Shown: positions 237 to 53,157 of the stretch, one piece after another
How the letters are laid out: each line of letters begins with the position of its first letter
How positions within the stretch are numbered: the stretch's first letter is position 1
DNA from: Chthoniobacteraceae bacterium
GTDB lineage: Bacteria > Verrucomicrobiota > Verrucomicrobiia > Chthoniobacterales > Chthoniobacteraceae
Length of the DNA: 64,000 bases
NCBI GenBank assembly: GCA_037190965.1
Contig: JBBCKI010000029.1
Location: 131,784-195,783, forward strand
Direction: 5' to 3'
Program-made: the position numbers and the translations under genes
The notes under the pieces: generated by a model
What the model saw: the letters and a program-made list of their open reading frames with translations, nothing else
Database searches by the model: none
Told to the model about the DNA's origin: nothing

Positions 237-354
237 CGGGAAGTGTCGTCGGTCTGAAGCCCTATGGCGTTTCGCGGCGGCTGACCAATGGCGGCCGATA
301 TTTTCACGACGATTTCATCGGGACTTCATCCTCGTTTCATGGGTGAGGGCAACC

Positions 355-1899
355 ATGGTCTTCATGAACCATTCCGATCCATCCGACGGTCCGTCTGCAT
401 TGCCGTTCCAAGATTCAGCACCCCCCATCCCGGAACGGCTGTTTAAGATTTTCGCCAGTACTGCAGGACTGACGCTATTGGGTAATTTCCTGCTGTGGCC
501 TGCCGTGCCAGGGCTCTCTTGGGGGCTGTTCCTGATCGTAGCCGGCGCAGTCTTGGTTTTGAACCGGCCGCGCTGTGCGTGGAATCGTACTTCGGCAGTT
601 TTGTCCGGGCTGCTCCTGATTACGGCTTGCCAGAGTGCGGTGGAAATCTCGTTAAGCAATGTTCTGGTGTCGTTGGCGCTTCTCGTGGCACTTGTGGGCG
701 AGGTTTCGTATCCCTCCCTGGCTGCCGGTTGGGAGAGAGGATCGGAAGCTCTATGGGCCCTTGCAAAAGCGCCGGGCAGGTGGGGATGGGCGGGCGGTGC
801 GATGACGAAACTCGCTCGGACCAATAGGGGAATGGTAGGCAGCGTGGTTTGGTGTATCCGCATCGGCTTGCCTGCGTTGATCCTGGGAGTCGCTTTTGCC
901 AGGCTCTTCGGGGCAGGAAACGCGATTTTCAGCTCATGGGCTTCCGCAAGCCTCGACGCGTTCTGGCGATGGCTTGCAGAATGGGATTTTTCGCCTAGGC
1001 ATTTGCTTTTCTACGGACTGCTGGCGACATTTTCCTTGTGGCTTCTCCGGCCTTCCGGCGCGGGGAGTTCGACACGGGTCTGGGCGCGTACGATCCCCAC
1101 GCTGCCCATCAGAAATCCTGCGATTGACTGGTGGCGCAGCGTGGTGGTGCTGGCCACGCTTAACGGTCTTTTCTTCCTGGTTAACACGATCGATGTATTC
1201 TATCTGTGGATGCACGGCCAACTGCCTGTCGGGGTGACTGCCAGTCAGTACGTCCATGAGGGAGTGCATAGCCTTGTTGCGGCGGTCATACTCTCGGCCG
1301 TAGTGCTGGTAACCTTGTTTCAGCAAGACCGAAGCATTGGCCAATCCCCCGCGCTGAAGCGGCTTGGCTATGTCTGGATAGCGCAGAATTTCGTCTTGCT
1401 CGCCGGTGTGGCGCTCCGATTGGCGCGCTATGTTCAAGACTCTCTGCTGACGCTCGCCCGAGTCTATGTATTTTGTTTCCTGCTCCTGGTGGCGACGGGG
1501 TTTGTGCTGCTGGTCTTTCACATCGCCGGGAATCGCAGCCTTAATTGGCTGATCTTGTCGAACGGACTCGCGACGATCGTGTTATTCTTCGTGATGCAAT
1601 TTCTCAATGTTGCCGGATGGGTGGCGCATTACAATGTGACGCATTGGGAACTCGATACCGGAAAGCCGTTGGATATTAAATATCTGGAATCATTGGGCGC
1701 CCCCGCCTGGCCAGCGCTGGCGCGGGCAGCGGACTCCAAACGCATTGGGGCGCAGGGGGCAAAGGACTTGTTGGAAAGAATAAAAATCGAATATCGTAGA
1801 GCATGTGATTCGCACAACTGGCGTTCGTGGCAGGCAAGGCGTGAACTAAATGCTGCAAAGGTATTTGGCCCGCCTGTGTCGTACGGCTCCGCTTTTTGA
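355..1899 (+). CDS. DUF4153/DUF4173-like multi-pass membrane protein
   Basis: Many hydrophobic segments; SQYVHEG and LTLARVY motifs; C-terminal LDIKYL...WRSW. Start ATG 355 or 364 preferred over the ORF-track start at 205. Confidence 0.7.
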   Translation: MVFMNHSDPSDGPSALPFQDSAPPIPERLFKIFASTAGLTLLGNFLLWPAVPGLSWGLFLIVAGAVLVLNRPRCAWNRTSAVLSGLLLITACQSAVEISLSNVLVSLALLVALVGEVSYPSLAAGWERGSEALWALAKAPGRWGWAGGAMTKLARTNRGMVGSVVWCIRIGLPALILGVAFARLFGAGNAIFSSWASASLDAFWRWLAEWDFSPRHLLFYGLLATFSLWLLRPSGAGSSTRVWARTIPTLPIRNPAIDWWRSVVVLATLNGLFFLVNTIDVFYLWMHGQLPVGVTASQYVHEGVHSLVAAVILSAVVLVTLFQQDRSIGQSPALKRLGYVWIAQNFVLLAGVALRLARYVQDSLLTLARVYVFCFLLLVATGFVLLVFHIAGNRSLNWLILSNGLATIVLFFVMQFLNVAGWVAHYNVTHWELDTGKPLDIKYLESLGAPAWPALARAADSKRIGAQGAKDLLERIKIEYRRACDSHNWRSWQARRELNAAKVFGPPVSYGSAF

Positions 1900-2000
1900 A
1901 ATATTTCTAACGCCGGGCCGATCGTTTCTTATGCGACTGTGGCCATTGAAACACCGCATTCTTTGGAGCGACAACAGAATCGCTCCAGAAAGGCCGAGCT

Positions 2001-2774
2001 TCACGTGTCCCTGATCCTTGGCAGTTGCCCAAGCGTCAATCCTCCATCGACAACGATCACCTGCCCGGTGATATAGGAAGATGCCGGGGCGCAAAGAAAA
2101 GCTGCGGTACCTCCACAGTCCTCGGGGGTTCCAATACGGCCCAGTGCGATCTTTCTCTCCAGCGCTTCACGAAGTCCCGGGGTTCTGTTAAGTGTCTTCT
2201 CGGCGGCGGAAGAGGGCGTCTGGATAAAGCCTGGCGCGATGCCATTGACCCGTATGCCATACTCGGCCAGCGACAGCGCCATGCTGCGCGTCATCATGAC
2301 CAGGGCTCCCTTCGATGTATCATAGGCGGTGGAATCGAATTCGGCCTGAAAGCCGTTGGTGGAACAGGTAATGACGACCGCTCCGCTACGCCTCAAAGAG
2401 ACAAGCCGGGAGGCGAATTCCTTGACAAGAAAATAGGTGGACTCGACATTCAGACGCATGGTTTTGTCCCAGCGTTCGTGGGACATTTCCAGGAGTGGCA
2501 CATCGAAAAAACCGCCTGCGTTGCCGATGAGCAAATCGAGACCCGGGCATGCGGAGAAGGCAGCATCCAGAAGGCTGTTTACTCCACCTACAGCCAGTAG
2601 ATCATGCCGGAAATAGGGATACTTCCCGAGATCTGCGTCGGATGGCTTTTCATCCAAACCGTGCAGCAGAACATCTGCTCCCGCCCGGACCAGAGCAGTT
2701 GCGATGCTTTGTCCGATGCCTCGAGACGAGCCGGTGATAAGCGCCGAGTGACCGCATAGCGAAAAATCAGACAT
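2001..2774 (-). CDS. SDR family NAD(P)-dependent oxidoreductase
   Basis: [11 protein letters not shown], YxxSK (YDTSK), IRVNGIAPG and [12 protein letters not shown] motifs. Confidence 0.95.
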
Positions 2775-42179: not shown

Positions 42180-44324
42180 ATGAATAGGAGAAGGGACAAA
42201 CCGCAGAGCATGGGACTTTGGCTGAACGAGCCGTTCTTCGATCAGCCGGACAGGGTCAATGCGGCCGTGCAGGATCTAGCCTCGGCAGGTTATGGAATCA
42301 TCCGCGTGATCTTGCGAAACACTAACTTTTGCCATCGTTCGAGGGAGACAATTCGTGCGGTGGATGGAGTTGTGAGGGCCGCGCACGCGCTCGGCGTCAA
42401 GGTGGTGCTCGACTGCGAGCCGCACGCCGAACCGGTCGCCAGGGATCTGGGCGGCCTCTATCCCAACGCCATGGGCTGGCGTGTCGTGCGAGCGGAAGGC
42501 GTCGTGGTGGATGAACGGTGCCTCCTTCACGTGCCCGCGCCATGCACGTCGGGTCCCATGCCGGAGTTTCTCGGCATTGAGGCGGCGTTCCTGGCGAGGA
42601 AAAGCGCCTATGAGAAAGTTTCTCCGGATTATTTCCAGGTCCGCGTGAATCGGGAGTTTTACCAGGATGGCTTCACCACGAACTCCCTGGTCTACACTGA
42701 AGGCCGCATGGGCGCGCAGCGATCCCATGTGCATTTGACCGGACAAGTGCCGGGGGTCTCGCAGGGGCGGGTGGTGGCCTATCTGCGTTTCTCGGATCGG
42801 CGCCTGATTGATTTTTGGTCGAGCGACACTTGGCGTTATTTCGATGAGCTCCTCGAAGGCTATCGCGGTATTCCGCTCGACGGAGTTGGATGGGATGAGC
42901 CGGCCACGGGAGGCGATTGGGACGGTTATCTTTTTGGTCCCGGCTATGAAGCGGCCTTTGCCCGAATGCATGGCACGCCACTTCGTGACAGATGGTTTCT
43001 GTTGGATGAACCGGGAATCTCGGCGGAGAGCCTGCGGGTGCGGCTGGACTATTACAGGATGCTCAACGAAGGCGTTTTCGAGGCCCAGCGCCGGCTCATT
43101 TGCAAGGCTCGGTCGCTCTTTGGGGAGGATCTGCTCCTCGGCACGCATCACACCTGGCAGGGGGAGGGCGGCATCAACGACTATCGAAGCGGAGCCGTTG
43201 ACTATTTTCGTTTGAACGACCAGATGGACGCTGGCTACACCGATTGCTGGTGGTGGGATGCCAAATCCGTTTGCTATGCTTACTCACTTGGGTCTTCGCT
43301 CGGGCGGCTGACCCCGTCCGGCGAGGCAGAGGTGAATACCTGGGACAAAAAGCCGACCAATGCGCGCACGGAATATCAGGCGAGGCTGATGACTCTCTTG
43401 AATATTACCTGGTTTAATATCTGGTACGGCGAGGCATCGGATTGCTGCCAGTACCCTGCCGACTACACCTGGCCAGCGGCAGTTTGCGAGATGCGCCTTC
43501 ACCGCGACCGCCAACTCCGCCTCGGAGCAGCGAAGCCGGTGGTAGACGTGGCGATTCTGCACGGCTGGGAAACCGTCTGCGGTCTCAACCGCGCGGACTA
43601 CGCCGCGGCCCACAAGACTTTTTGCCTCAATACGGCGGAGCTTTTCGTGGAGCGCAACGTGGCTTTCGACTGGGTGGACTCTCGGCTCCTGGCGAGTTCG
43701 CGGACCGAGGCGGGCCGCCTGATTAACGATCTGGGCAGTTATGCCATCCTTATCCTGCCTTACGCCGCAGTGCTGCCCCGCGCGGCTTGGGAAAAATGCC
43801 GACAGTTTATCCAAGCGGGCGGACAGGCGATTTTCACGGGTCCCCCTCCAGCGTGGACCGTGGAGGGCGAGGCGATCGATGCTGAATTCGCGGAATTGAT
43901 GGATCTGCCGGTGCTGCCGCTGGCGCGGTACCTGGCCCGGGTGGATGCAACATGCACCTTGCCGCAATATCGTCCCACGCGGCTGGATGTCGGTTGCGAG
44001 CTCGAGGTCGATGCTGACCGCCTGTTGCTGTCGGCGGAGGGCGGGCGGCATGGGATGCATAATGCCGCTCGAAATGCCATCTATCTAAGCGACCTGGATC
44101 CGCGTGGCCAGCTGCTGGATCTCATCGAACCCTGGCTGGAATCGTCGATCACATGTTGGTCGGATACGATCTTATGGCGGCGCTATCGCGAAGGGAACCG
44201 CGAGGTGCTCGTGTGCGTGGCCCGCGAAGGCCGGCGCCTGCAGGGCTTGATTCGCTGGAGCGGCGAAGAGATTGTGTTCGATACCGGCACGGTCTGCCTC
44301 CTGGAACGGATTAGAGCAGTTTAA
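42180..44324 (+). CDS. Hypothetical glycoside hydrolase-like protein with class I GATase-like (trimerisation-type) domain; 3' end altered by a palindromic element
   Basis: LDGVGWDEP, VDVAIL, YAILILPYA...FIQAGG; the last codons and the TAA come from the inserted repeat. Confidence 0.6.
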   Translation: MNRRRDKPQSMGLWLNEPFFDQPDRVNAAVQDLASAGYGIIRVILRNTNFCHRSRETIRAVDGVVRAAHALGVKVVLDCEPHAEPVARDLGGLYPNAMGWRVVRAEGVVVDERCLLHVPAPCTSGPMPEFLGIEAAFLARKSAYEKVSPDYFQVRVNREFYQDGFTTNSLVYTEGRMGAQRSHVHLTGQVPGVSQGRVVAYLRFSDRRLIDFWSSDTWRYFDELLEGYRGIPLDGVGWDEPATGGDWDGYLFGPGYEAAFARMHGTPLRDRWFLLDEPGISAESLRVRLDYYRMLNEGVFEAQRRLICKARSLFGEDLLLGTHHTWQGEGGINDYRSGAVDYFRLNDQMDAGYTDCWWWDAKSVCYAYSLGSSLGRLTPSGEAEVNTWDKKPTNARTEYQARLMTLLNITWFNIWYGEASDCCQYPADYTWPAAVCEMRLHRDRQLRLGAAKPVVDVAILHGWETVCGLNRADYAAAHKTFCLNTAELFVERNVAFDWVDSRLLASSRTEAGRLINDLGSYAILILPYAAVLPRAAWEKCRQFIQAGGQAIFTGPPPAWTVEGEAIDAEFAELMDLPVLPLARYLARVDATCTLPQYRPTRLDVGCELEVDADRLLLSAEGGRHGMHNAARNAIYLSDLDPRGQLLDLIEPWLESSITCWSDTILWRRYREGNREVLVCVAREGRRLQGLIRWSGEEIVFDTGTVCLLERIRAV

Positions 44325-44481
44325 ATTATAATGCACACAGCTTATTTTGCGAGCGCCGGGGGCTACTGCGACGGTTTTCGAGCACAGCGGCTGTATTTTC
44401 AATACAGCCCAAGCTCGAAAGGCGTCGCAGTGGCCCTCGCCACCGCAAAGAAGCATGTGCAGGATAAGTTAATCTGCTCCA
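44312..44481. repeat. Palindromic element family A, copy 1 (170 bp, MITE/RPE-like)
   Basis: Ends TAGAGCAGTTTAA / TTAATCTGCTCCA; nested stems TGCACA/TGTGCA, TTTGCG/CGCAAA, CTGCGACG/CGTCGCAG, TTTCGAGC/GCTCGAAA, GGCTGTATT-ttc-AATACAGCC; homologous to 49598-49763. Confidence 0.85.
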
Positions 44482-44580
44482 ACGGCAAACTGATCGAAAA
44501 GCCCGCTCTCCTCGCGGATGACTCTTGCCGCTTGAGCGGGCCAACCGGTCAGTCTCATTTTCATCCCCCTGAGCCCTCGC

Positions 44581-47250
44581 ATGCCTCGCTATAAATTCCC
44601 GTTCCTGGCCTTGATGACGTTAACCGTATTCGCGTTAACCCTATGTCGGCTCTTGGGCCAGCCGTTCGCGTCGGCGGAAAACGCGCCCGAGCCGACTCGC
44701 GTCCAAGTGGTTTCAGGGTTCTTCAATCCGAATTCTCCGGACCAGTTTCGCAATCTCATTGCGCTGATGCGCGACGATCCGTCGCTGAAGATCGAGATGT
44801 GGAGCGGGCTCTCGCTGCCGGGAGGCAGTTCACGCACGCCGATCATCATGTCCATCGCGGGAGAGACCTCGCCGGATTTGATGGAATCCTGGTTTCACAC
44901 CATTCGAAACGATATCGCGCAGGGGTTCTTGTATCCGCTCAATGAATGGATCGGCGACGACACGGACGGCGATGGCCAGATCAGCGACGCGGAAGCCAAG
45001 TGGCCGGGCTGGAAGAGTGTGCCGGAATTGTGGAAGCGCGTGGCCACGGTGGATGGCAAAGTCTACGGGCTACCGCAGCCGGGCGAAAACATGATGGGCG
45101 TGCTCTACCGCATCGATCTGGTGCGGGCGGCAGGCCTGGATCCGAATGAGCCACCGCGCACGTGGGAGGAATTTTACGACTGGTGCATGAGGCTGACCAA
45201 TCCTGGCCGGCCAGTGCCGGGCCGCGCCTACAATGATGGCCAGCGGGCCATCGCGCTCCTGCCTTACGGATTCACCTGGCTGCCGTGGCTGGAGACCGCG
45301 GGAGGCACGCCCTTGAAGCAAGTCGCCGTCGATTCGCAAAGCGGGAAGTCTTACGAGTTCTCCATGAACGAGACGCGGCTGCTCACCGAAGATGGACGCG
45401 ATCTTTCCCGGGAGAAGGTGGCTTTTCGGGCTGATTTCGACTCGCCTGCCGGCCTTGCTGCCGCCGGTTTGCTGCATCGGCTCCGCTGGGCGCCGTGGGT
45501 CATCGATCCGGAAACCGGAGATCCTTTTTCGCTCACGGAGGAGCAAGCGCGCGCGGGAGTGGTGGAGGCGGGAGGACGGCGCATCGTCTTCGATCCGGCC
45601 TCGGTGCAGGCAGGAGTCGGCCGGGCCCAGGGCGGCGCTCGCGAGTTATCGCCATTGCAACTGCTGGCACGAGGGGAAGTGGCGATGCTCACTTGGTTCG
45701 TCGGCAGCATTCAGAGCGGCACCGAAGCGGGCCTCAACCCGGAACTCATCGGCTGGTTCCCTTTTCCTGCCATGACGGCACAAACGCCGCGGGTGGTCCA
45801 GTTGCAGCGGCACTTCGCCACCATGGTCACGAATGTTCGCTTGCGTCCCAAGGAAGAGCGCGACCGCGTGTGGCAGGTGCTCGAGAAAGTAACGGATCGC
45901 GCCGCGCGAGACCAGGAAGTCGAGCGCTTGGTCATCTCCGGGCTGGCCCGCTTCGTCAATCCCAAGGACCTGCTTCGCTTGGGCTACCAGGACTATGTGC
46001 GGGATATTCCGCCGGAAATCTTGCAGAACTTTAACGAGATCGATGCCGGGCACATTCGCACGGAAACGGAGCCCTACCAAGGCTTCTGGCTGACCATGGA
46101 TGGCGCGCTCAATCGCGAAGTGCTCAGCCTGATCATCTCTCAGACGGGGAAGAATTTCGATTACACCTCGGCCTTGCACGAGATCACGAAGAAGGCCAAT
46201 AGCGGCGTCATGTTCGCCCGCTCCGAGGCGGATTTCGCCCAGCATCGCGGAACGGCCTTTGCCATCTTCCTTCTCATTCTCGCGGTGGTCGCAGCTCTCA
46301 CGGTGCTCATCATCCGCCAGATGATGGCGGTGCGGGCGGCCTCGCGCAGCGGGATGGTGAGCAACCCCTGGCTGCCCTGGCTGCTGCTTTTGCCGGCGCT
46401 CCTGCTCATTGGCCTGTGGGGGTACTATCCCTTGCTGCGCGGAATGGTGATGGCGTTTCAGGATTACCGCATCGCGGGCGAAAGCACCTTTGTCGGATTG
46501 GACAATTTCATCGCGCTGGCGCTCGACCGGAGCTTCTGGACCAGCCTGTTCACGACATTTTATTTTGTGTCGCTGACGATGCTGCTGGCATTCACCGCGC
46601 CGATCATTCTGGCGGTAATGGTGTCGGAAGTGCCGCGGGGAAAGGTCTTCTTCCGCACCTTGTTCTTTCTGCCCCAGGTGAGCAGCGCCCTGGTGATCGC
46701 GCTCATCTGGAAGATGATGTACGACCCTGCTCCGAGCGGATTGTTCAATCAGGTGATCCAATGGCTTAACCACTTGCCAGGCGTTCACATCGACCTGCAG
46801 TCGTGGTTGCTGGACCCGAAGCTTGCCATGCTGTGTGTCGTGCTGCCCACTGCTTGGGCCACGGCGGGCATCCAAAGCCTGATTTATTTGGCCGCATTGA
46901 AAGGCGTTCCGGATGATCTTTACGAGGCCTGTGAAATCGACAGTGGCGGAGTCTGGACCAAGCTGCGCCACATCACGCTGCCGATGCTGATGCCGCTCAT
47001 CATCATCAATTTCGTCGGAGCATTCATCGGCACTTTCCAGAACATGGGCAAGATCTTCCTGCTGACCTTCGGCGGCCCGGGAGAAACAACCATGGTCCTC
47101 GGCATGCGCATCTGGATCGAGGCCTACAGCAACCTGCGCTTCAGCATTGCTACCTCCATGGCCTGGGTGCTCGGAGCCTGCCTCATCGGGTTCACTTATC
47201 TGCAAATTCAGTTTCTCAAGAAGATAGAGTTCCGCAAAGCCAAGGACTGA
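44581..47250 (+). CDS. Fused sugar ABC transporter substrate-binding protein + MalF-type permease
   Basis: SBP-like N-terminal part (DGKVYGLP, PPRTWEEF) fused to a permease (FVGLDNF, FRTLFFLP, DLYEACEIDSGG EAA loop, HITLP). Confidence 0.9.
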   Translation: MPRYKFPFLALMTLTVFALTLCRLLGQPFASAENAPEPTRVQVVSGFFNPNSPDQFRNLIALMRDDPSLKIEMWSGLSLPGGSSRTPIIMSIAGETSPDLMESWFHTIRNDIAQGFLYPLNEWIGDDTDGDGQISDAEAKWPGWKSVPELWKRVATVDGKVYGLPQPGENMMGVLYRIDLVRAAGLDPNEPPRTWEEFYDWCMRLTNPGRPVPGRAYNDGQRAIALLPYGFTWLPWLETAGGTPLKQVAVDSQSGKSYEFSMNETRLLTEDGRDLSREKVAFRADFDSPAGLAAAGLLHRLRWAPWVIDPETGDPFSLTEEQARAGVVEAGGRRIVFDPASVQAGVGRAQGGARELSPLQLLARGEVAMLTWFVGSIQSGTEAGLNPELIGWFPFPAMTAQTPRVVQLQRHFATMVTNVRLRPKEERDRVWQVLEKVTDRAARDQEVERLVISGLARFVNPKDLLRLGYQDYVRDIPPEILQNFNEIDAGHIRTETEPYQGFWLTMDGALNREVLSLIISQTGKNFDYTSALHEITKKANSGVMFARSEADFAQHRGTAFAIFLLILAVVAALTVLIIRQMMAVRAASRSGMVSNPWLPWLLLLPALLLIGLWGYYPLLRGMVMAFQDYRIAGESTFVGLDNFIALALDRSFWTSLFTTFYFVSLTMLLAFTAPIILAVMVSEVPRGKVFFRTLFFLPQVSSALVIALIWKMMYDPAPSGLFNQVIQWLNHLPGVHIDLQSWLLDPKLAMLCVVLPTAWATAGIQSLIYLAALKGVPDDLYEACEIDSGGVWTKLRHITLPMLMPLIIINFVGAFIGTFQNMGKIFLLTFGGPGETTMVLGMRIWIEAYSNLRFSIATSMAWVLGACLIGFTYLQIQFLKKIEFRKAKD

Positions 47251-47254
47251 CCCC

Positions 47255-49600
47255 ATGCCCATTCTCTCCACCGTTGGACGCAAAAGCTGGTCGAGCCGCC
47301 TGTTTGTCTGGTTCCTCTACGCCTGCCTCTCGTTCTTCGGAGCCACCATGGTTATCCCGTTTCTTATCACGGTAACCGGCTCCGCGACGAACGCCTTCGA
47401 TTACGAACGTTTCTCCGTGCTGCCGCGCTTCACGTGGTCCCGGGACGACCGCTTTGTCAAAGGCCTGGTGTATTTCTTCAACGGCTATCCGGGCTGGTAT
47501 TCCTCACTGCGCAACTATCTCCCGGAGGTGCCGGAGAGCTGGACCTCATGGCGCACCGCCGGCCTGGACGAAGAGGGGGTGCGCCGGCTCTCTGCGGAGT
47601 ATCTCGACGCCTCGCCCGAGACGCGCGTTTTCCGCGCCCGGCAGGCAGCTGACTATGCGGAGTTTTCTCTGCGTTATCCGCTGGCGGATTCCCAGGCCGC
47701 GATCACGCCGGAACTCTCCTCGCAATTCATTGCCTTGAAGTACGGACAGCTTTGGGCGCAGAAACATCCTGGCGCTGCCACGAAAGCCGAACGGGAAGCC
47801 GGCGCGCTGGCCATGCTCTCGGAAAGCTGGGGCGTGCCCATCCCCGATTTCTACACGATCAACTTCAAGGCGGAGAATCGCGCGCCCATGGGACAGCAGA
47901 CATGGAGCCCGCCAAAGACACCGAAGTACGCCGACTATCTCGATTTTCTTTACGCCTTGCGGCACGGCTTCGGCACGCCGGGGGTTCTGCCGGCCTGGCG
48001 GCGCTTCTTGCAAGAGAAGGGCCTTTCCAAGCAGGAAACGGAGCGCCTCTCGCCGCTACCGGCGGATGCTTCGATGGAAGAACAGGCGCTCTGGCTGGAG
48101 TTTGCCCGCGCATCGGCTCCGGCCTCGCCGGTGATACCCTTTCCCCTGCGCCTGGTCTGGATCGAATTTCTCCAGAGCGACGAGGCTCGTCCGCTCCTCG
48201 GCCTGGAGGGTAGACAGCGGTTCGATGTCGCCCATTACAACGCGCTGGCCGGGACTCAGTATGGCCGGCTTTCCGAAACTCCGTTTCCGTTGCCGGTAGC
48301 CGAGTTCGACGGCTTGCGGAAAGCGTGGGACCGCTTCGTAGAGTCCCGCTATCCATTGCGGCTCACGACAATTGTGGTGAACGAGCAGACGCAACTGGCC
48401 TTCCGGCAGTTTCTGGAAAACCAGTATCATTCACTCGAAAACGTGAACCGCCTGCTGGGCACCCAGTTCGCCGCGTGGTCCGAATTCACGCTACCTCCCG
48501 GCCTGCCCGAGGGCTCCGCTTTGAACCCGAACTCCGAAGTTGATCGCGGCGATCTGACGCAATTTGCTGGTCGCGAGTGCCTTTCGTCAGGGCTCGCCGT
48601 ATCTAAAGATACGCCTCGCCCTTCCTCAAATCATCGCGACTCAGCCTCTTGCGCCAGCTCATCCGCTCCAACATCGGAGTTCGGGTTGAATGGCGCGGGC
48701 CGGCGTGAGGTGTGGATGGATTTCGTGCGCACCCTGCCCGCGGCGCAGCGGGAACTCCATTCGGCAGAAGGGGACTATCAAAAATTTCTGCTCACGAAGT
48801 ACGGTTCCCTGGCGACCATCAATGAAGCCTATGGCTGGCGGCTGGCGCGGATCGAGGAGGCGCGACCTGCCTTCGACGCAGCCTACGCGGCGACCTACTC
48901 GGCCCACGCGCTCGCCTTTACCCTCGACGCGCCGCTCTCCAATTATCACACTATCGCTCAATTCCTTCTCAGTCGGGGAAACGCCATCCCGGTCACGCTT
49001 TGGCTCATCTTACTGAGCATTTTTTCCTCGCTCACCATCAATCCTCTGGCCGGCTACGCCTTGTCCCGGTTCAATCTTCGCAACAAGGACAAAATTATTC
49101 TTTTCTGTCTGGCAACGTCTGCTTTCCCCGCCATGGTTAGCGCCATCCCCGGGTATCTCCTGATGCGCGACCTGGGGCTGCTCAATACCTTCTTCGCGCT
49201 CATCCTGCCTGGCGCGGCAAGTGGCATGAGCATCTTCATTTTGAAGGGATTCTTCGATTCGCTTCCGCAGGAACTTTACGAAGCCGCCACCATTGATGGA
49301 GCCAAGGAATGGCAGATCTTCGTGAAAATTAGCCTTCCGATGCTCACGCCCATCCTCGCCGTGAATGCGCTCAACGCCTTCCTCAGCGCCTATGGCAGTT
49401 GGGAATGGGCTCTCATCGTCTGCCAGGACAAAAGCATGTGGACGCTTTCGGTCTGGCTTTACCAAGCCAGCCAATGGTGGGTACAGACCCCGTGGATTAC
49501 CACGGCCGGATTCGTCATCGCCTCGGTTCCGACCCTCCTGGTCTTCCTTTTTTGTCAAAAGATCATTTTGCGCGGCATCGTCGTGCCATCCATGAAATAG
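47255..49600 (+). CDS. Sugar ABC transporter MalG-type permease with a large extracytoplasmic insert
   Basis: C-terminal AGYALSR, LGLLNT, FFDSLPQELYEAATIDGA, FLFCQKII; ~500-aa insert after TM1. Confidence 0.9.
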   Translation: MPILSTVGRKSWSSRLFVWFLYACLSFFGATMVIPFLITVTGSATNAFDYERFSVLPRFTWSRDDRFVKGLVYFFNGYPGWYSSLRNYLPEVPESWTSWRTAGLDEEGVRRLSAEYLDASPETRVFRARQAADYAEFSLRYPLADSQAAITPELSSQFIALKYGQLWAQKHPGAATKAEREAGALAMLSESWGVPIPDFYTINFKAENRAPMGQQTWSPPKTPKYADYLDFLYALRHGFGTPGVLPAWRRFLQEKGLSKQETERLSPLPADASMEEQALWLEFARASAPASPVIPFPLRLVWIEFLQSDEARPLLGLEGRQRFDVAHYNALAGTQYGRLSETPFPLPVAEFDGLRKAWDRFVESRYPLRLTTIVVNEQTQLAFRQFLENQYHSLENVNRLLGTQFAAWSEFTLPPGLPEGSALNPNSEVDRGDLTQFAGRECLSSGLAVSKDTPRPSSNHRDSASCASSSAPTSEFGLNGAGRREVWMDFVRTLPAAQRELHSAEGDYQKFLLTKYGSLATINEAYGWRLARIEEARPAFDAAYAATYSAHALAFTLDAPLSNYHTIAQFLLSRGNAIPVTLWLILLSIFSSLTINPLAGYALSRFNLRNKDKIILFCLATSAFPAMVSAIPGYLLMRDLGLLNTFFALILPGAASGMSIFILKGFFDSLPQELYEAATIDGAKEWQIFVKISLPMLTPILAVNALNAFLSAYGSWEWALIVCQDKSMWTLSVWLYQASQWWVQTPWITTAGFVIASVPTLLVFLFCQKIILRGIVVPSMK
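48524..48687. repeat. Palindromic element family B, copy 1 (164 bp), inserted in frame in the permease gene
   Basis: Ends AACCCGAACTCCGAAGTTG / CAACATCGGAGTTCGGGTT; central CGTATCT-aa-AGATACG; TTGAA recurs 165 bp apart (48521, 48686). Confidence 0.88.
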
Positions 49601-49763
49601 AGCGCTTTTGAGTTAAATGTTTACAATTATTTGCGAGCGCCGTGGGTTGGTGCGCGGCTTTTCAAGCGAAGCGGCTGTATTTCCAATACTGCCCGAGCTT
49701 GAAGGGCCGCGCAACGGCCCGCGCCGCCGCAAAGAATGTAAACAGGAATTCAAAACCGCTCTA
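49598..49763. repeat. Palindromic element family A, copy 2 (166 bp)
   Basis: Ends TAGAGCGCTTTTGAGTT / AATTCAAAACCGCTCTA (TA...TA); begins at the permease TAG stop; stems TGTTTACA/TGTAAACA, TGCGCGGC/GCCGCGCA, TTCAAGC/GCTTGAA. Confidence 0.88.
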
Positions 49764-49768
49764 TCCCC

Positions 49769-51214
49769 ATGACTAGTCGATTCCTCCTTGCCTTTTTCCT
49801 GGCCTGCGCGCCCGTGCCATCTTTCGCCATGAACTTGAATCTTGCGCGCCCCTACACCGTGGAGTGCTCGCCCCCGCAAACCCCGCAACTGGCCTTCTCC
49901 AGCCCGCAATCCGAAACCCTGCTGTTTGAAAAGGGGCAGGAAATTACGATGCTTTGCCAGGCGGGCACGCGGGCCATCGGTTTGAGCTGGTCCCTCCATC
50001 GCAACAGGGTTAAGAAACCCTTTCTAGAAGGCCAGGCGGAGGCTCTGCCCGCCAATCAGTTCAAGATCCGCCTTCCCACCGGCCAGCTTGAGCCCGGCTT
50101 TTACGACCTGCGTGTCAAGCTGGATAATGGCGTGGACCCGCTTGTCGAGGGGGTGAGCACTTTTGGATGGCAGGTCTCCTCCATGGCCCTGCGCGAGACA
50201 CGGCCGGCGGATTTTTCCGCCTTTTGGAAAGCCCTCGTCGATGCGTATGCCGCAGCGCCCCTTGATGTGCGGATGGAAAGCGAGATGAAAACTTATCGTG
50301 GGAAAGAGATCGGTGAGTACAACGCCAAGGAAGCGGCGCTGCCCGGCGACTACGATCCCAACGGCCATAAGTTCGACGAGGTGGAATCCTGCAAGATCAG
50401 TTATGCGGGACCCGACGGCGGGCGAGTTTACGGATGGCTTGCGCGGCCCAAGGGAGGCGGTCCGTTCCCAGGTATGATCGTCCTGCCCGGTGCGGGTTTC
50501 AACGCCCGGCCTCGTCCTTTGGAGCACGCACGGCACGGTTTCGTGGCTTTGGATATCCAGATCCACGGTCAGGATGTTGACTTGGAGAAATACGAGAAAC
50601 TGCCGGGCTACTATAATCAGTTCACTTACGAACCGCCTCAGGACTACTATTACAAGAACGTCTACCTGCGCGCTTTGAAAGCCGTTGAGGTGCTGACCAC
50701 GCGGCCCGAGGTCAAGAAGAATGAGATCGTGGTCGTCGGCGGCAGCCAGGGGGGGCGGCTGGCGATCGTGGTGGCGGCGCTGGATCCGCGCGTTCGGGCG
50801 GCCATCTCATGCATCGCTAATTCTGCCAATTACCCGCATCTCCGCTGGGTCGCCGATTGCAACGGCCTGGTCAGCCCGTTCGGAAAGCAGCTCCGGGAGG
50901 GGGGTGTAATATCCGACGGCACGGCACTTTCCGACGCTCCACCCGCATTTGACGATCCGGAGGCCCGCTGTGTGCGCTACTACGATCCCATGAACTTCGC
51001 CTCCGACGTGAAGTGTCCGGTCTTGATGAATGCCGGGCTCATTGATCCCGTTTCCCCACCCTTCAGCATTTGGGCTGTCTTCAACCGGCTGGGCACGAAG
51101 GACCGGCAGATCGTGGCCCTGCCAGGTCTCGGCCATGACTGGTCGGCGGAATTCGACCGGCGGGCCTGGCATTGGTTGGAGGAGCGCCTCAAAGCCAACG
51201 CGGGGACAAATTGA
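49769..51214 (+). CDS. Acetylxylan esterase / cephalosporin-C deacetylase family (CE7), secreted
   Basis: VYGWLARPK, PQDYYY, GGSQGG nucleophile, YYDPMNFA, GLIDPVSPP, LGH. Confidence 0.88.
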   Translation: MTSRFLLAFFLACAPVPSFAMNLNLARPYTVECSPPQTPQLAFSSPQSETLLFEKGQEITMLCQAGTRAIGLSWSLHRNRVKKPFLEGQAEALPANQFKIRLPTGQLEPGFYDLRVKLDNGVDPLVEGVSTFGWQVSSMALRETRPADFSAFWKALVDAYAAAPLDVRMESEMKTYRGKEIGEYNAKEAALPGDYDPNGHKFDEVESCKISYAGPDGGRVYGWLARPKGGGPFPGMIVLPGAGFNARPRPLEHARHGFVALDIQIHGQDVDLEKYEKLPGYYNQFTYEPPQDYYYKNVYLRALKAVEVLTTRPEVKKNEIVVVGGSQGGRLAIVVAALDPRVRAAISCIANSANYPHLRWVADCNGLVSPFGKQLREGGVISDGTALSDAPPAFDDPEARCVRYYDPMNFASDVKCPVLMNAGLIDPVSPPFSIWAVFNRLGTKDRQIVALPGLGHDWSAEFDRRAWHWLEERLKANAGTN

Positions 51215-51218
51215 CGGA

Positions 51219-52634
51219 ATGAGCCTCTGGTTCCCCACTCAGCACGATGCACGGGCAGATTTCACTTTTTTGGAAGGGCGATCGGCCCCGCGTGATCGCC
51301 CGTTAATGGCGATCACCGATAAGCGTTCCACCACACTTAGGTGGCGCGAGTGGCCGCGCGATAGTAACCGGTTGGAATTGAGCCTGGCCGTCGCCATCGA
51401 TTTTCCAGATTCCCCGGAGAACGAGCTGCTCGTCACCTGCGGGCCGGACCAAGGCGTGGTCGGACAACTGGAGATTCGCCATCCCGACCCCTACCAGATC
51501 CTTTCGATTCCGCTGGATCCCGCCCGGCTGTCCGGCTCGGTGGATTTGACGCTCCGGCTGCAACTCGCCTCCGGAAGTTGTATCTGGCTGTTCGCGCCCA
51601 ATCGCGAGGCGTCCCATGGATTGGAGTACCACGTGCCCCATCTCCACGTACCATCCGGGCCTCCGGCCGAGTTCCGATCGCGGCTTTGCTCGATGGCCTC
51701 CCTTCAGGCTTTCGGTTGGAAAGAGGGCTGTGTTCTCGAGGGCATTCATGCGCTGGGCAAGGCCGGACTCTGCCTGGAGGCGCCCCTGGTCATTCGCCGT
51801 CATCTCGATGAATTCGGCTTTTCCAGCGGAAAGCTCATCTACGAGACGCCGCGCAGTGAGCGCGTCTCCAACCGTCTTACTACCATCGAATCGACCCTGC
51901 CCTTTGCGCAGGTCGCCCGCCTGGATCCACTTCATCCCTGGGTGGATCTCGCCGTGGACTATTGGCAGCAACAGCTCGATGAGCTTGGCCAGGTTTGCGA
52001 GCATAGCATGATCTCCAGCGAGGGCGCCTATACCGTGGCCTATCCCATGACGCTCATCGCCCACACGCGCGGCGAGGAACGCTGGGCCGTGCTTGCCCAA
52101 GACTTGCTTATCAAGACCTTCGCGCATCTCGTCCAGCCCGAGGGGATTTATCTCCGCTGTTTTCAGGACGGTACACGCACTCATCGCAATTGGGCTCGGG
52201 GCCTGGCTTGGCTGCTTCTCGGCCATGTCCAGACCTTGCGCCACCAGCCGTCTCCATCCGCCCAACTCGTCGAACAATTGCTCCACCTGGCGGAGTTCGC
52301 CAAATGCTACCAAAGGGAAGACGGCCTTTGGTCCACCTACCTCGACGAACCCACGATCAAGCCCGATACTTCCGGCTCGGCTGGCATCGCCGCGGCTTTT
52401 GCCCTCGCCTCCGGCTCCGGGTGGTTGCCGACCGTCTATCGCGAGCGGGCCATGCTCTGCCGCCAGGCTTTGAGCGGGTGGCTTACGAGCGAGGGTTTTC
52501 TGGGAGGGTGTTCCCAATCCAATAAGGGTGGCGAGGAACTTCAGCGCAGTCCTTATAGGGTTGCTCTTCCCTATGCCTTAGGACTGCTGGGGACTTTGGA
52601 GGCGGCTTTGATGATACCCGAAAACCGAAGTTGA
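51219..52634 (+). CDS. Glycoside hydrolase family 88/105-like (unsaturated uronyl hydrolase fold)
   Basis: NWARGLAW, YQREDGLW, DTSGSAGIA. Start ATG 51219; the last codons come from the family B repeat. Confidence 0.8.
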   Translation: MSLWFPTQHDARADFTFLEGRSAPRDRPLMAITDKRSTTLRWREWPRDSNRLELSLAVAIDFPDSPENELLVTCGPDQGVVGQLEIRHPDPYQILSIPLDPARLSGSVDLTLRLQLASGSCIWLFAPNREASHGLEYHVPHLHVPSGPPAEFRSRLCSMASLQAFGWKEGCVLEGIHALGKAGLCLEAPLVIRRHLDEFGFSSGKLIYETPRSERVSNRLTTIESTLPFAQVARLDPLHPWVDLAVDYWQQQLDELGQVCEHSMISSEGAYTVAYPMTLIAHTRGEERWAVLAQDLLIKTFAHLVQPEGIYLRCFQDGTRTHRNWARGLAWLLLGHVQTLRHQPSPSAQLVEQLLHLAEFAKCYQREDGLWSTYLDEPTIKPDTSGSAGIAAAFALASGSGWLPTVYRERAMLCRQALSGWLTSEGFLGGCSQSNKGGEELQRSPYRVALPYALGLLGTLEAALMIPENRS

Positions 52635-52778
52635 TCGCGGCGGCCTTGCGCAATTTCCTGGGCATAAATGGCTTCGTCGAAGTGCGCCGTATCAAAAGAT
52701 ACGACCGCACTTCTCCTCAACCGTTTCTGCACCAGGCTCTTGCGCAGTTCCGCTCGCTCCAGCATCGGTTTTCGGGTT
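52615..52778. repeat. Palindromic element family B, copy 2 (164 bp)
   Basis: Ends ACCCGAAAACCGAAGTTG / CAGCATCGGTTTTCGGGT; central CGTATC-aaaa-GATACG, GAAGTGCG/CGCACTTC; alignable to 48524-48687. Confidence 0.88.
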
Positions 52779-52803
52779 AAACCCCTACCGCGCTGAAGTT
52801 GGC

Positions 52804-53157
52804 TCACGCGTCGATCCAGATGTCGCCGTTCTCGACCTTGAGAGGAAACATCTTGATGCGAGGCTTGATGGGGCACACGGAGGCGCCGCTGGTCAGGTCG
52901 AATTCCCAATGATGCCAGGGACACTTTAGGACCGGCCGGTCGTGGTCGCAATCCGGCAACGCGCCGGGTTCATTCCCGAGTACGATGGCTTCCACCCGGC
53001 CGCGAGCGATGGGCGCGCCGGCGTGTGGGCAGAAATTCAGCACGGCGTGGAAGGAATCACCATATCGAAGAATTCCGATCTCACGGCGTCCCAGAGAGAC
53101 CATTGTCGGTGTGCCTTCCCGCACCTCCGAGGCCATGCAAACCTTTTGCCAGCTCAT
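52804..53157 (-). CDS. Rieske (2Fe-2S) ferredoxin
   Basis: CPH...CPWH ligands; 117 aa; ATGA overlap with the amidohydrolase gene. Confidence 0.93.
   Translation of the reverse strand: MSWQKVCMASEVREGTPTMVSLGRREIGILRYGDSFHAVLNFCPHAGAPIARGRVEAIVLGNEPGALPDCDHDRPVLKCPWHHWEFDLTSGASVCPIKPRIKMFPLKVENGDIWIDA

Follow-up and report, generated by a model that had tools for sequence, protein, structure and literature searches.

Two families of hairpin-forming repeats in a soil Chthoniobacteraceae genome, very probably IS630- and IS1380-type MITEs, one of them strongly oriented with respect to GC skew

RUP of Streptococcus pneumoniae, linked to IS630-Spn1, is a short (107 bp) non-autonomous repeat with IS630-like inverted-repeat ends that inserts at TA (as described in the part of PMC2229807 drawn on here). 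A different type of example is that of Correia/NEMIS, ERIC and the 168-bp enterobacterial RU-2, MITE-like elements that form one stem-loop by pairing of the 5′ end with the 3′ end; they lie beside, and sometimes within, genes, and their RNA hairpins can affect neighboring transcripts (excerpts of PMC2229807; PMC2759123). In-frame fusion of MITE peptides to host ORFs is also described (excerpts of PMC2229807).

With regard to orientation, insertion oriented by the direction in which the replication fork moves is a property of IS200/IS605 and of Tn7 with TnsE, and in the portion of a broad survey considered here such bias is found mainly with IS200/IS605, IS607, IS91, ISL3 and IS110, none being given outside three phyla and MITEs not being mentioned (PMC3971601). 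A literature search found no description of a MITE for the phylum Verrucomicrobia.

The present case comes from a 4.2-Mb MAG of a soil member of the Chthoniobacteraceae (Verrucomicrobia), in 73 contigs and 97% complete. Within the window, i.e. the whole stretch of 64,000 nucleotides that was analyzed (C29:131784-195783), an initial annotation had drawn attention to four long hairpins of two families, A and B (Table 1). All four are where it placed them, and nhmmer within the window yields these loci only, in keeping with its claim of none in the other ~55 kb. Each folds very stably as one long hairpin, with MFE values of -101.4 (A1), -101.1 (A2), -88.9 (B1) and -89.8 kcal/mol (B2), the respective z scores being -10.6, -12.0, -8.6 and -9.5, and with 0/200 shuffles as stable in every case; for B1 the minus strand is the better-folding one. 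The apical GTAT...ATAC stem-loop said to be common to both families is present, and the compensatory pairs that had been quoted recur in the alignments of both. The Rfam comparison then proposed gave no family matching A or B: none of its covariance models reaches gathering score anywhere in the window, and at E<=1 in 44000-53000 the sole match is a weak one to ALIL, outside the elements. As expected of MITEs, the elements of both families are short (160-170 bp) and without a transposase ORF.

Table 1. Elements and adjoining genes in the window (the MITE assignments are those considered very probable; TSD, target duplication)
Feature	Coordinates	Strand	Description
Upstream ORF of A1	42180/42210-44324		Ends 4 codons inside A1; stop codon TAA from A1
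A1	44312..44481	+	Family A, probable MITE of IS630 type
889-aa ORF	44581..47250	+	Solute-binding domain fused to ABC permease domain; neighbor
B1 host gene	47255..49600	+	781-aa ORF, transporter
B1 TSD, left copy	48521..48525	.	TTGAA, 5 bp
B1 core	48526..48685	+	Family B, probable MITE of IS1380 type, 160 nt, CCCGAAC...GTTCGGG
B1 TSD, right copy	48686..48690	.	TTGAA, 5 bp
A2	49598..49763	+	Family A, probable MITE, GAGCGC...GCGCTC between TA and TA
Acetyl-xylan-esterase-like gene	49769..51214	+	Start 5 nt past A2
B2 core	52617..52776	+	Family B, probable MITE, 160 nt

There is little doubt that the hairpins belong to two families of non-autonomous transposons (MITEs), A of IS630 type and B of IS1380 type. 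They are new families of a known sort, and neither local RNA genes nor a new class of RNA. The scan of the genome and of relatives that had been suggested at the outset revealed dispersed copies in both, and one empty site (B1, below). In the whole assembly nhmmer detects 26 family A loci, 18 of them full, and ~60 family B loci, 25 of them full, dispersed over dozens of contigs.

Family A elements are of 166-170 bp, with terminal inverted repeats (TIRs) TAGAGC... / ...GCTCTA, and fall into at least 4-5 subfamilies with paired changes in the arms around a conserved core of ~105 nt. TA is present at the left of 14/18 copies and at the right of 14/18, though it is inseparable from the element's own ends; A1 has TA at its left and CA, a decayed TA, at its right. 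In a 1005-bp IS630-family IS of a related genome (G011:C110; NF033545, 136.7 + 62 bits in two frames), the inverted repeats are perfect over 27 nt and begin TAGAGCATTTTC, with TA/TA as the flanks of the IS. The arm of one family A subfamily matches this repeat at 25/29 positions, with the reservations that 4/29 differ, that the IS is from another genus and that its ORF is split over two frames. Other candidates proved unsuitable: a full IS630 of the congener G001 has different ends, two A copies in inverted orientation, separated by 1561 bp, enclose non-transposase ORFs, and G005 contigs starting inside A copies reflect repeat-induced assembly breaks next to ftsZ/ftsA. Family A is present in 8/41 genomes, including all 5 congeners. 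By description it is like RUP in its IS630-type ends and TA, but it is longer, is in another phylum, is palindromic over its full length and has the subfamily structure, paired arm changes and conserved core just mentioned. Its outer arms would be the TIRs to which an IS630-family transposase, supplied in trans, binds.

The IS1380 family, of which ISEcp1 is an example, has ends beginning CC and duplications of 4-5 bp. Family B has a core of 160 nt, CCYGAA...TTCRGG, with CCYGAAWWCCGAWGTTG at both termini, and a 5-bp, AT-rich, TTNAA-like target duplication. With element boundaries set by alignment, the flanking 5-mers of 22 copies are identical in 9 and alike in at least 4 of 5 positions in 13 (permuted control: mean 1.4 identical, maximum 6 in 5000); those of B2, TGATA and TTAAA, are alike at 3/5. 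Two metagenome loci (L163 and L156) have IS1380 transposases of 461 and 459 aa, respectively, between B-type ends, scoring 240.8 and 253.4 bits against NF033539 (cut-off 180), and B-type ends have 18/19 terminal bases in common with those of IS1380-family ISs. In a related genome, G108, a 1511-bp IS (on C15) has B-type ends, a TTAAA/TTAAA duplication and an ORF homologous to the L156 transposase (52% identity), and at least 12 B copies are present besides; flanking 5-mers are identical in 11/12 of these. Beside solo B ends in G108 there is no transposase. An IS1380 fragment in G012 is without B-type ends, and G012:C5 is not clearly a transposase locus. The covariance model finds family B in 6/41 genomes, with one weak match among the 5 congeners. 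Family B would be a 160-nt non-autonomous form, in contrast to autonomous IS1380, with the 17-19-nt ends of the 1.5-kb IS1380-family ISs and with a 5-bp duplication of the AT-rich, TTNAA-like site on insertion. The ISs with B ends have in common with the IS1380 family a CC start, AT-rich TTAA/TTNAA-type duplications and a DDE transposase of ~460 aa. PiggyBac, to which IS1380 is a prokaryotic outgroup, has a TTAA target and CCC-type TIR starts (excerpts of PMC10813416).

Duplications, an empty site and IS-type ends together mean that the elements were placed by transposition. The empty site is that of B1: an X3 contig from a related strain joins 48520 to 48686, skipping exactly 165 nt, with 5 letters that fit either side (one contig, whose short side is 26 nt). 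Contigs of X2-X4, which cover the window in part, include none with an empty site for A1, A2 or B2. The 5 congeners, compared at DNA level, gave no orthologous site to set against these, because the operon is not conserved there at ~70% identity. At C31:60055-60253 a third hairpin family is nested inside a B copy. The initial annotation, in stating that no cognate mobilizing enzyme was evident, was right for the window and also for this assembly, which has no IS630, DDE_3 or IS1380 transposase, so that the elements here may no longer be mobile. A search of this genome for A or B termini paired at distances of 250-6000 bp gave no full-length transposase-bearing element, and the only DDE_Tnp_1 IS of the genome, on C34, has unrelated 35-nt repeats. 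Mobilization would have been in trans, by a transposase that the genome has since lost or that is missing from its assembled contigs. A transposase near copies, which the initial annotation had advised looking for, came to light as the IS630 and IS1380 partners in other genomes and in metagenomes; Y1 genes adjoin no copy.

Consequences for host genes are varied. In the window the better-folding strand is sense for A and antisense for B. B1 with its duplication is of 165 nt, i.e. 55 codons, in-frame in the fused transporter gene, whose product has an N-terminal domain (weak GH42 match), residues 424-478 deriving from B1 plus one duplication copy, and, at residues 612-773, an ABC permease domain (BPD_transp_1). 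This gene ends with TAG, the first three bases of A2, as its stop codon, and a GH88-like ORF upstream of B2 ends at 52634, its TGA being inside the left inverted repeat of B2. In-frame location, an echo of Rickettsia palindromic elements, is exceptional for family B, only 1/24 full copies being intragenic (of the others, 8 are sense to genes, 4 antisense, 4 convergent and 7 divergent). Among 18 family A copies, 6 are sense, 5 antisense, 5 convergent and 2 divergent, and overlap with a gene 3′ end occurs 12 times. In their single stem-loop and location beside genes both families are like Correia/NEMIS, ERIC and RU-2 (a likeness of description, with none expected in sequence), a difference being that cognate IS families are identified for A and for B.

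The covariation first noted between pairs of copies holds in larger alignments. Among 18 aligned copies of family A, pairing holds in 96.3% of cells and 19/60 pairs have changed on both sides, with 0/500 shuffles reaching any of the measures and slid controls being 38-48% paired; for family B (22 copies), the corresponding values are 93.9% and 25/43, again with 0/500 shuffles. The most variable of the covarying segments are the TIRs. Hairpin shape as such would be a consequence of arm-to-arm complementarity over the whole element, and TIR covariation, over the terminal ~25 nt, would follow from the need for a single transposase to accept both ends. However, inner pairs also have compensatory changes (10/37 in A, 16/28 in B), and both families have a better-folding strand, G-U pairs outnumbering A-C pairs 99:8 in A and, on its better strand, 93:24 in B. 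The folding asymmetry for A and B is about 19 and 14 kcal/mol with RNA parameters, and about 5 with DNA parameters. Transposase binding does not account for these changes deep inside the element, nor for the one-strand G-U bias; for the inner part, some constraint on the single strand, or an arm-homogenizing process acting there, would be needed. The compensatory changes in the TIRs together with the G-U bias leave room for a constraint at single-strand level.

An extreme in another regard is the orientation of family B, assigned from strand-specific profiles. With GC skew as a proxy for replication, the same strand is on the G-rich side in 49/53 full copies from four genomes, and in all 12 of the young copies in G108, among which there are perfect duplications. 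Family A of this genome has no such bias (8 against 10). Gene orientation is not the source, as the orientation of B with respect to genes is mixed and the genes of this genome have no strand bias (51.5%). Neither is in-situ strand-biased mutation: on the strand lying in G-rich DNA the GC skew of B itself is -0.135, and the asymmetric positions are common to copies. Family B, unlike A, is inserted, or retained, in one orientation to replication, with integration perhaps coupled to the fork. Binding to the beta-clamp has been reported for a peptide of an IS1380 transposase. Tentatively, and with the odds somewhat against it, an IS1380-type (piggyBac-related) DDE system may integrate in one orientation to the fork, perhaps via beta-clamp binding. 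Tn7, which shares the fork-following orientation, has TGT ends and several TnsB sites; family B has neither, and has IS1380-type ends instead. IS1380 shows orientation bias in few or no chromosomes, as far as the part of the survey used here extends (PMC3971601), whereas family B is almost fully oriented.

Other explanations have been considered. That the hairpins are primarily structured cis-acting RNAs (terminators, mRNA stabilizers or processing sites), retained for what they do to the flanking operon and spread by host use, is improbable even though their stability, the covariation extending past the termini, the strand-specific G-U pairing, the far greater folding asymmetry with RNA parameters and the overlap of A copies with gene 3′ ends would all suit it. 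Orientation to genes is mixed in both families, with the window itself having A sense and B antisense, there is no Rfam match, and the duplications, empty site and IS-type ends are those of placement by transposition. The suggestion in the initial annotation of a structured RNA controlling mRNA processing, as a primary role, lacks support, given the mixed orientation and lack of an Rfam match; some copies may still act secondarily at the RNA level. Its alternative of mobilization through recognition as ssDNA or RNA fares no better, the matching ISs encoding DDE transposases and the TIRs being the most variable covarying segments. What survives of the mobile-element proposal is mobility itself, for which dispersed copies, duplications, an empty site, a nested insertion, patchy distribution and IS-matched ends speak.

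Movement of ssDNA hairpins by a tyrosine (HUH/Y1) transposase, in the manner of REP/RAYT or of palindromes derived from IS200/IS605, would account for both the one-strand folding bias and the replication-linked orientation of B, a pattern reported for IS200/IS605 (PMC3971601, in part), and the genome has four Y1_Tnp matches. It is nevertheless very unlikely. The three matches on contigs C7 and C43 have no A or B locus on the same contig, and for the fourth (C5:33382) the nearest fragment lies >12 kb away, so that no copy has a Y1 gene beside it, and the ends of both families are common to DDE-type ISs. IS200/IS605, with its Y1 enzyme, makes no duplication, and Y1 transposition in general is not known to produce any, whereas in family B the 5-bp duplications are matched while varying in sequence. 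Least credible, to the point of being nearly negligible, is that the hairpins are landing pads or remnants linked to group II introns or to integron-type recombination sites. In one genome (G021) a group II intron ORF (RVT_1 152.3, GIIM 43.6 bits) is enclosed by two 17-nt B-type ends at a spacing of 2138 bp, and many contigs there break ~50 nt inside such a 17-nt end. The best reading of this case is insertion of an intron into a short B-type element, and the genome under study has no GIIM match, its window has no intron RNA family at gathering threshold, and copies are scattered, not arrayed.

On the MITE reading, then, a named transposase family is now the likely driver of each, IS630 for A and IS1380 for B. 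Relevance to annotation is immediate: copies supply stop codons, extend or truncate C-termini and cause breaks in assemblies, and one has lengthened a transporter by 55 residues. Except for the orientation lock of B to replication, both are elements of an ordinary kind. If the fork-coupled proposal is true, family B would be a natural reporter of fork-coupled DDE transposition, and the one-strand G-U bias seen in A and B alike would suggest a stage, or a constraint, at which the element is single-stranded and which is absent from ordinary MITE models. The near-absolute orientation of family B to replication is the part worth following, and should the bias be established on insertion, the 160-nt element and its 1.5-kb partner IS would make a simple test system for how fork polarity is sensed by a DDE transposase.

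The four hairpins belong to two new families of MITEs (short non-autonomous transposons), which are elements of a well-known kind; family A is of IS630 type and family B of IS1380 type. All four elements of the initial annotation are present, each as one long hairpin (see table), and in no case was any of 200 dinucleotide shuffles as stable as the native sequence. Rfam gave no match at gathering score in the whole window, and the sole match in a permissive scan of 44000-53000 was a weak ALIL outside the elements. With copies being kin by descent, so that independent events are fewer than the counts imply, the family A consensus hairpin (18 copies) has 60 pairs with 96.3% of cells paired and both-side changes in 19, no column shuffle among 500 reaching any of five measures and pairing falling to 38-48% when, as a control, the partner is slid by 1-3 columns; the family B hairpin (22 copies) has 43 pairs, 93.9% paired, with both-side changes in 25 and 0/500 shuffles. 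Such changes in family A are densest in the outer ~25 nt (9/14 pairs, inner pairs 10/37), and the outer arms divide the family into no fewer than four or five subfamilies, which share a conserved ~105-nt core. For family B the values are 9/15 for terminal and 16/28 for inner pairs.

Locations of the hairpins and associated features (window coordinates unless a contig, C, is given; contigs are of the genome under study, G000, unless another genome, G, is named)
Feature	Location	MFE (kcal/mol)	z-score
A1	44312..44481	-101.4	-10.6
A2	49598..49763	-101.1	-12.0
B1 core	48526..48685	-88.9	-8.6
B2 core	52617..52776	-89.8	-9.5
889-aa transporter ORF (+)	44581-47250		
781-aa transporter ORF (+), hosting B1	47255-49600		
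MITE cluster	44312-52778		
Further MITE clusters	C68:43110-44142; C42:27532-50949; C63:42347-61100		
Inverted family A pair (L001/L002)	C63:59540-61100		
Third-family element within a B copy	C31:60055-60253		
Some other third-family copies	C14:9461-9625; C14:17599-17761; C18:67384-67548; C64:46560-46732		
Y1_Tnp matches	C7:29925-30714 (two adjacent); C43:15829-16155; C5:33382-33600		
Hairpin adjoining an IS (L125)	G001:C14, locus 1149-1379		
Intron ORF between B-type ends (L133)	G021:C154, locus 308-2445		

In the assembly of G000 (4.21 Mb, 73 contigs, 97% complete), where the window is C29:131784-195783, BLAST and iterated nhmmer place family A at 26 loci, 18 of them complete, and family B at 60, of which 25 are complete and the remainder shorter variants and fragments; the loci are scattered across dozens of contigs. 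As had been stated, the window has no copies beyond the four. Clustering is seen, with four copies per 8.5 kb here versus a genome average of ~1 per 50 kb, and in the C68 cluster A and B copies are <1 kb apart. Family A occurs in 5/5 congeners searched and two other genera (8/41 genomes overall). Public contigs with its core are titled Chthoniobacteraceae, Verrucomicrobiota or Spartobacteria MAGs, and 16/19 matches to the core pattern are whole or contig-truncated elements; the other three, from other phyla, matched the 21-nt apical motif alone and were discarded as chance. A covariance model of family B found it in 6/41 relatives, including G011, G012 and, as single matches, G021 and G025, with one weak match only in the five congeners.

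Family A copies have the format TA/GAGC...GCTC/TA, the TA being present on the left in 14/18 and on the right in 14/18. No IS630 (NF033545) or DDE_3 match was found in G000; IS630-family matches were found in all five relatives searched. An IS in one of them (G011:C110) is 1005 bp long, with TA/TA flanks, perfect 27-nt inverted repeats starting TAGAGCATTTTC and a transposase match spread over two frames, and the arm of one family A subfamily is like its inverted repeat at 25/29 positions. The complete IS630 of the congener G001 was rejected as partner, its ends being different. Also in G001, a near-perfect hairpin of ~230 bp (inverted repeat pairs of 43 nt and 17 nt) adjoins a complete IS630-family IS. 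Elsewhere in G000, two inverted family A copies that together span 1561 bp flank a pair of neighbouring ORFs (stop-to-stop lengths 197 and 122 aa) without resemblance to transposases; the whole may be a composite, MITE-bounded unit.

The family B core, with boundaries from alignment, is 160 nt, CCYGAA...TTCRGG. Its flanking 5-mers are identical for 9/22 copies and alike at four or more of five positions for 13/22, as against a mean of 1.4 identical and a maximum of 6 in 5000 permutations of right flanks, and the target is TTNAA-like. These ends and target are consistent with the piggyBac pattern of TTAA duplications and CCC-type ends, IS1380 being the prokaryotic outgroup in PMC10813416. G000 itself has no IS1380 match. 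The 19-nt family B end is widespread among environmental contigs: a metagenome scan with it returned 120 stretches, and among the 80 fetched, 26 have short inverted pairs of ends 143-287 bp apart and only four match the family B interior, so that one IS1380-type end seems to be common to many distinct MITEs. Long pairs are present in three, including one of 1495 bp (L163) with a 461-aa ORF scoring 240.8 bits and one of 1514 bp (L156) with a 459-aa ORF scoring 253.4 bits against the IS1380 model (cut-off 180 bits), their ends having 18/19 bases in common with those of family B. Homologues of this transposase were found in 29/151 genomes of the bacterial family. One genome, G108, has both an IS of 1511 bp, whose ends are of B type and whose target duplication is TTAAA/TTAAA, and at least 12 B copies, 11 with perfect 5-bp duplications. 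A different association is that in G021 of a group II intron ORF (RVT_1 152.3 bits, GIIM 43.6 bits) flanked on each side by a 17-nt end of family B type and seemingly placed within the loop of a short B-type hairpin; as many of the 31 such ends in G021 are ~50 nt from contig ends, the composite looks multi-copy.

Signs of movement come from contigs of a soil metagenome run of another study that span the B1-hosting transporter gene at ~96% identity. One joins 48520 straight to 48686, 5 letters fitting either side, and the absent 165 nt correspond precisely to the B1 core together with a single TTGAA; the junction is in a single contig with a short side of 26 nt. Also, a B copy is split into halves by insertion of an element from another, third family of hairpins. 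Members of this family are ~172 bp long, have TAGAGC/TATAGC ends and fold at about -100 kcal/mol (MFE); with 12 BLAST matches in 11 places, the family is like A in architecture but different in interior. The initial reading of the hairpins as mobile and non-autonomous holds. Recognition as ssDNA or RNA, or a role as regulatory RNA, is unsupported as a mechanism of spread. Four Y1_Tnp (IS200/RAYT-type) matches are present in G000, none adjoining an A or B copy.

B1 with its duplication is 55 codons, in frame within the 781-aa ORF, between a variable N-terminal domain and the ABC permease domain; paralogue similarity begins at residue 483, just past the insert. Since the genus has many fused paralogues, their open frames 565-714 aa long, the fusion is older than the B1 insertion. 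Both transporter ORFs are unusual ABC fusions, a solute-binding domain with a permease in the 889-aa ORF and an unknown N-terminal domain with a permease in the other. The TAG stop of the 781-aa ORF is the first three bases of A2, without which the frame would extend four codons; the final four codons and stop of the ORF upstream of A1 come from A1, and the final six and stop of a GH88-like gene from B2. Across G000, with gene calls from a purpose-written simple codon-usage caller, the terminal TAG/CTA is the stop codon of the abutting gene for 9/18 A copies, as against stop codons at 10.8% of otherwise neutral TA sites; overlaps with gene 3′ ends number 12 altogether.

With RNA parameters, the shown strand of family A folds better than its complement in 18/18 copies (mean difference 18.8 kcal/mol), and for family B the complement is better in 21/25; DNA parameters keep the direction (A 18/18, B 19/22) with differences of ~5 kcal/mol. 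The advantage of one strand is due to wobble pairing, G-U exceeding A-C by 99 to 8 cells in family A and by 93 to 24 on the better strand of family B. Most wobble positions are common to copies and so founder-derived rather than independent events.

Orientation was scored with strand-specific profiles against local GC skew, the element itself removed, as no more than a proxy for replication direction; skew is of one sign in ≥80% of 10-kb windows for 31/40 contigs of ≥40 kb. Full B copies have their window-plus-type strand on the G-rich strand in 26/28 cases in G000 (p = 3e-6), both exceptions being in a contig with near-zero skew, in 5/5 in G011, 6/8 in G012 and 12/12 in the Mb-scale contigs of G108, 49/53 together. 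With fragments included the G000 split is 71 vs 11; that of family A is 8 vs 10. Transcription as the cause is rejected, as genes in G000 divide 51.5:48.5 between strands and B orientation relative to neighbouring genes is mixed, and so is local mutation pressure, family B's own skew of -0.135 being opposite to its surroundings. Selection, with slow loss of one orientation, could also yield such a distribution but is less favoured, because short variants have the same bias and so do the young G108 copies with perfect duplications (12/12); a bias arising at insertion is favoured. The survey in PMC3971601 reports beta-clamp binding by an IS1380 transposase peptide, yet for IS1380 it sees an orientation bias in at most a few chromosomes; MITEs are absent from it. 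This replication-linked orientation of family B is the most interesting result of the analysis.
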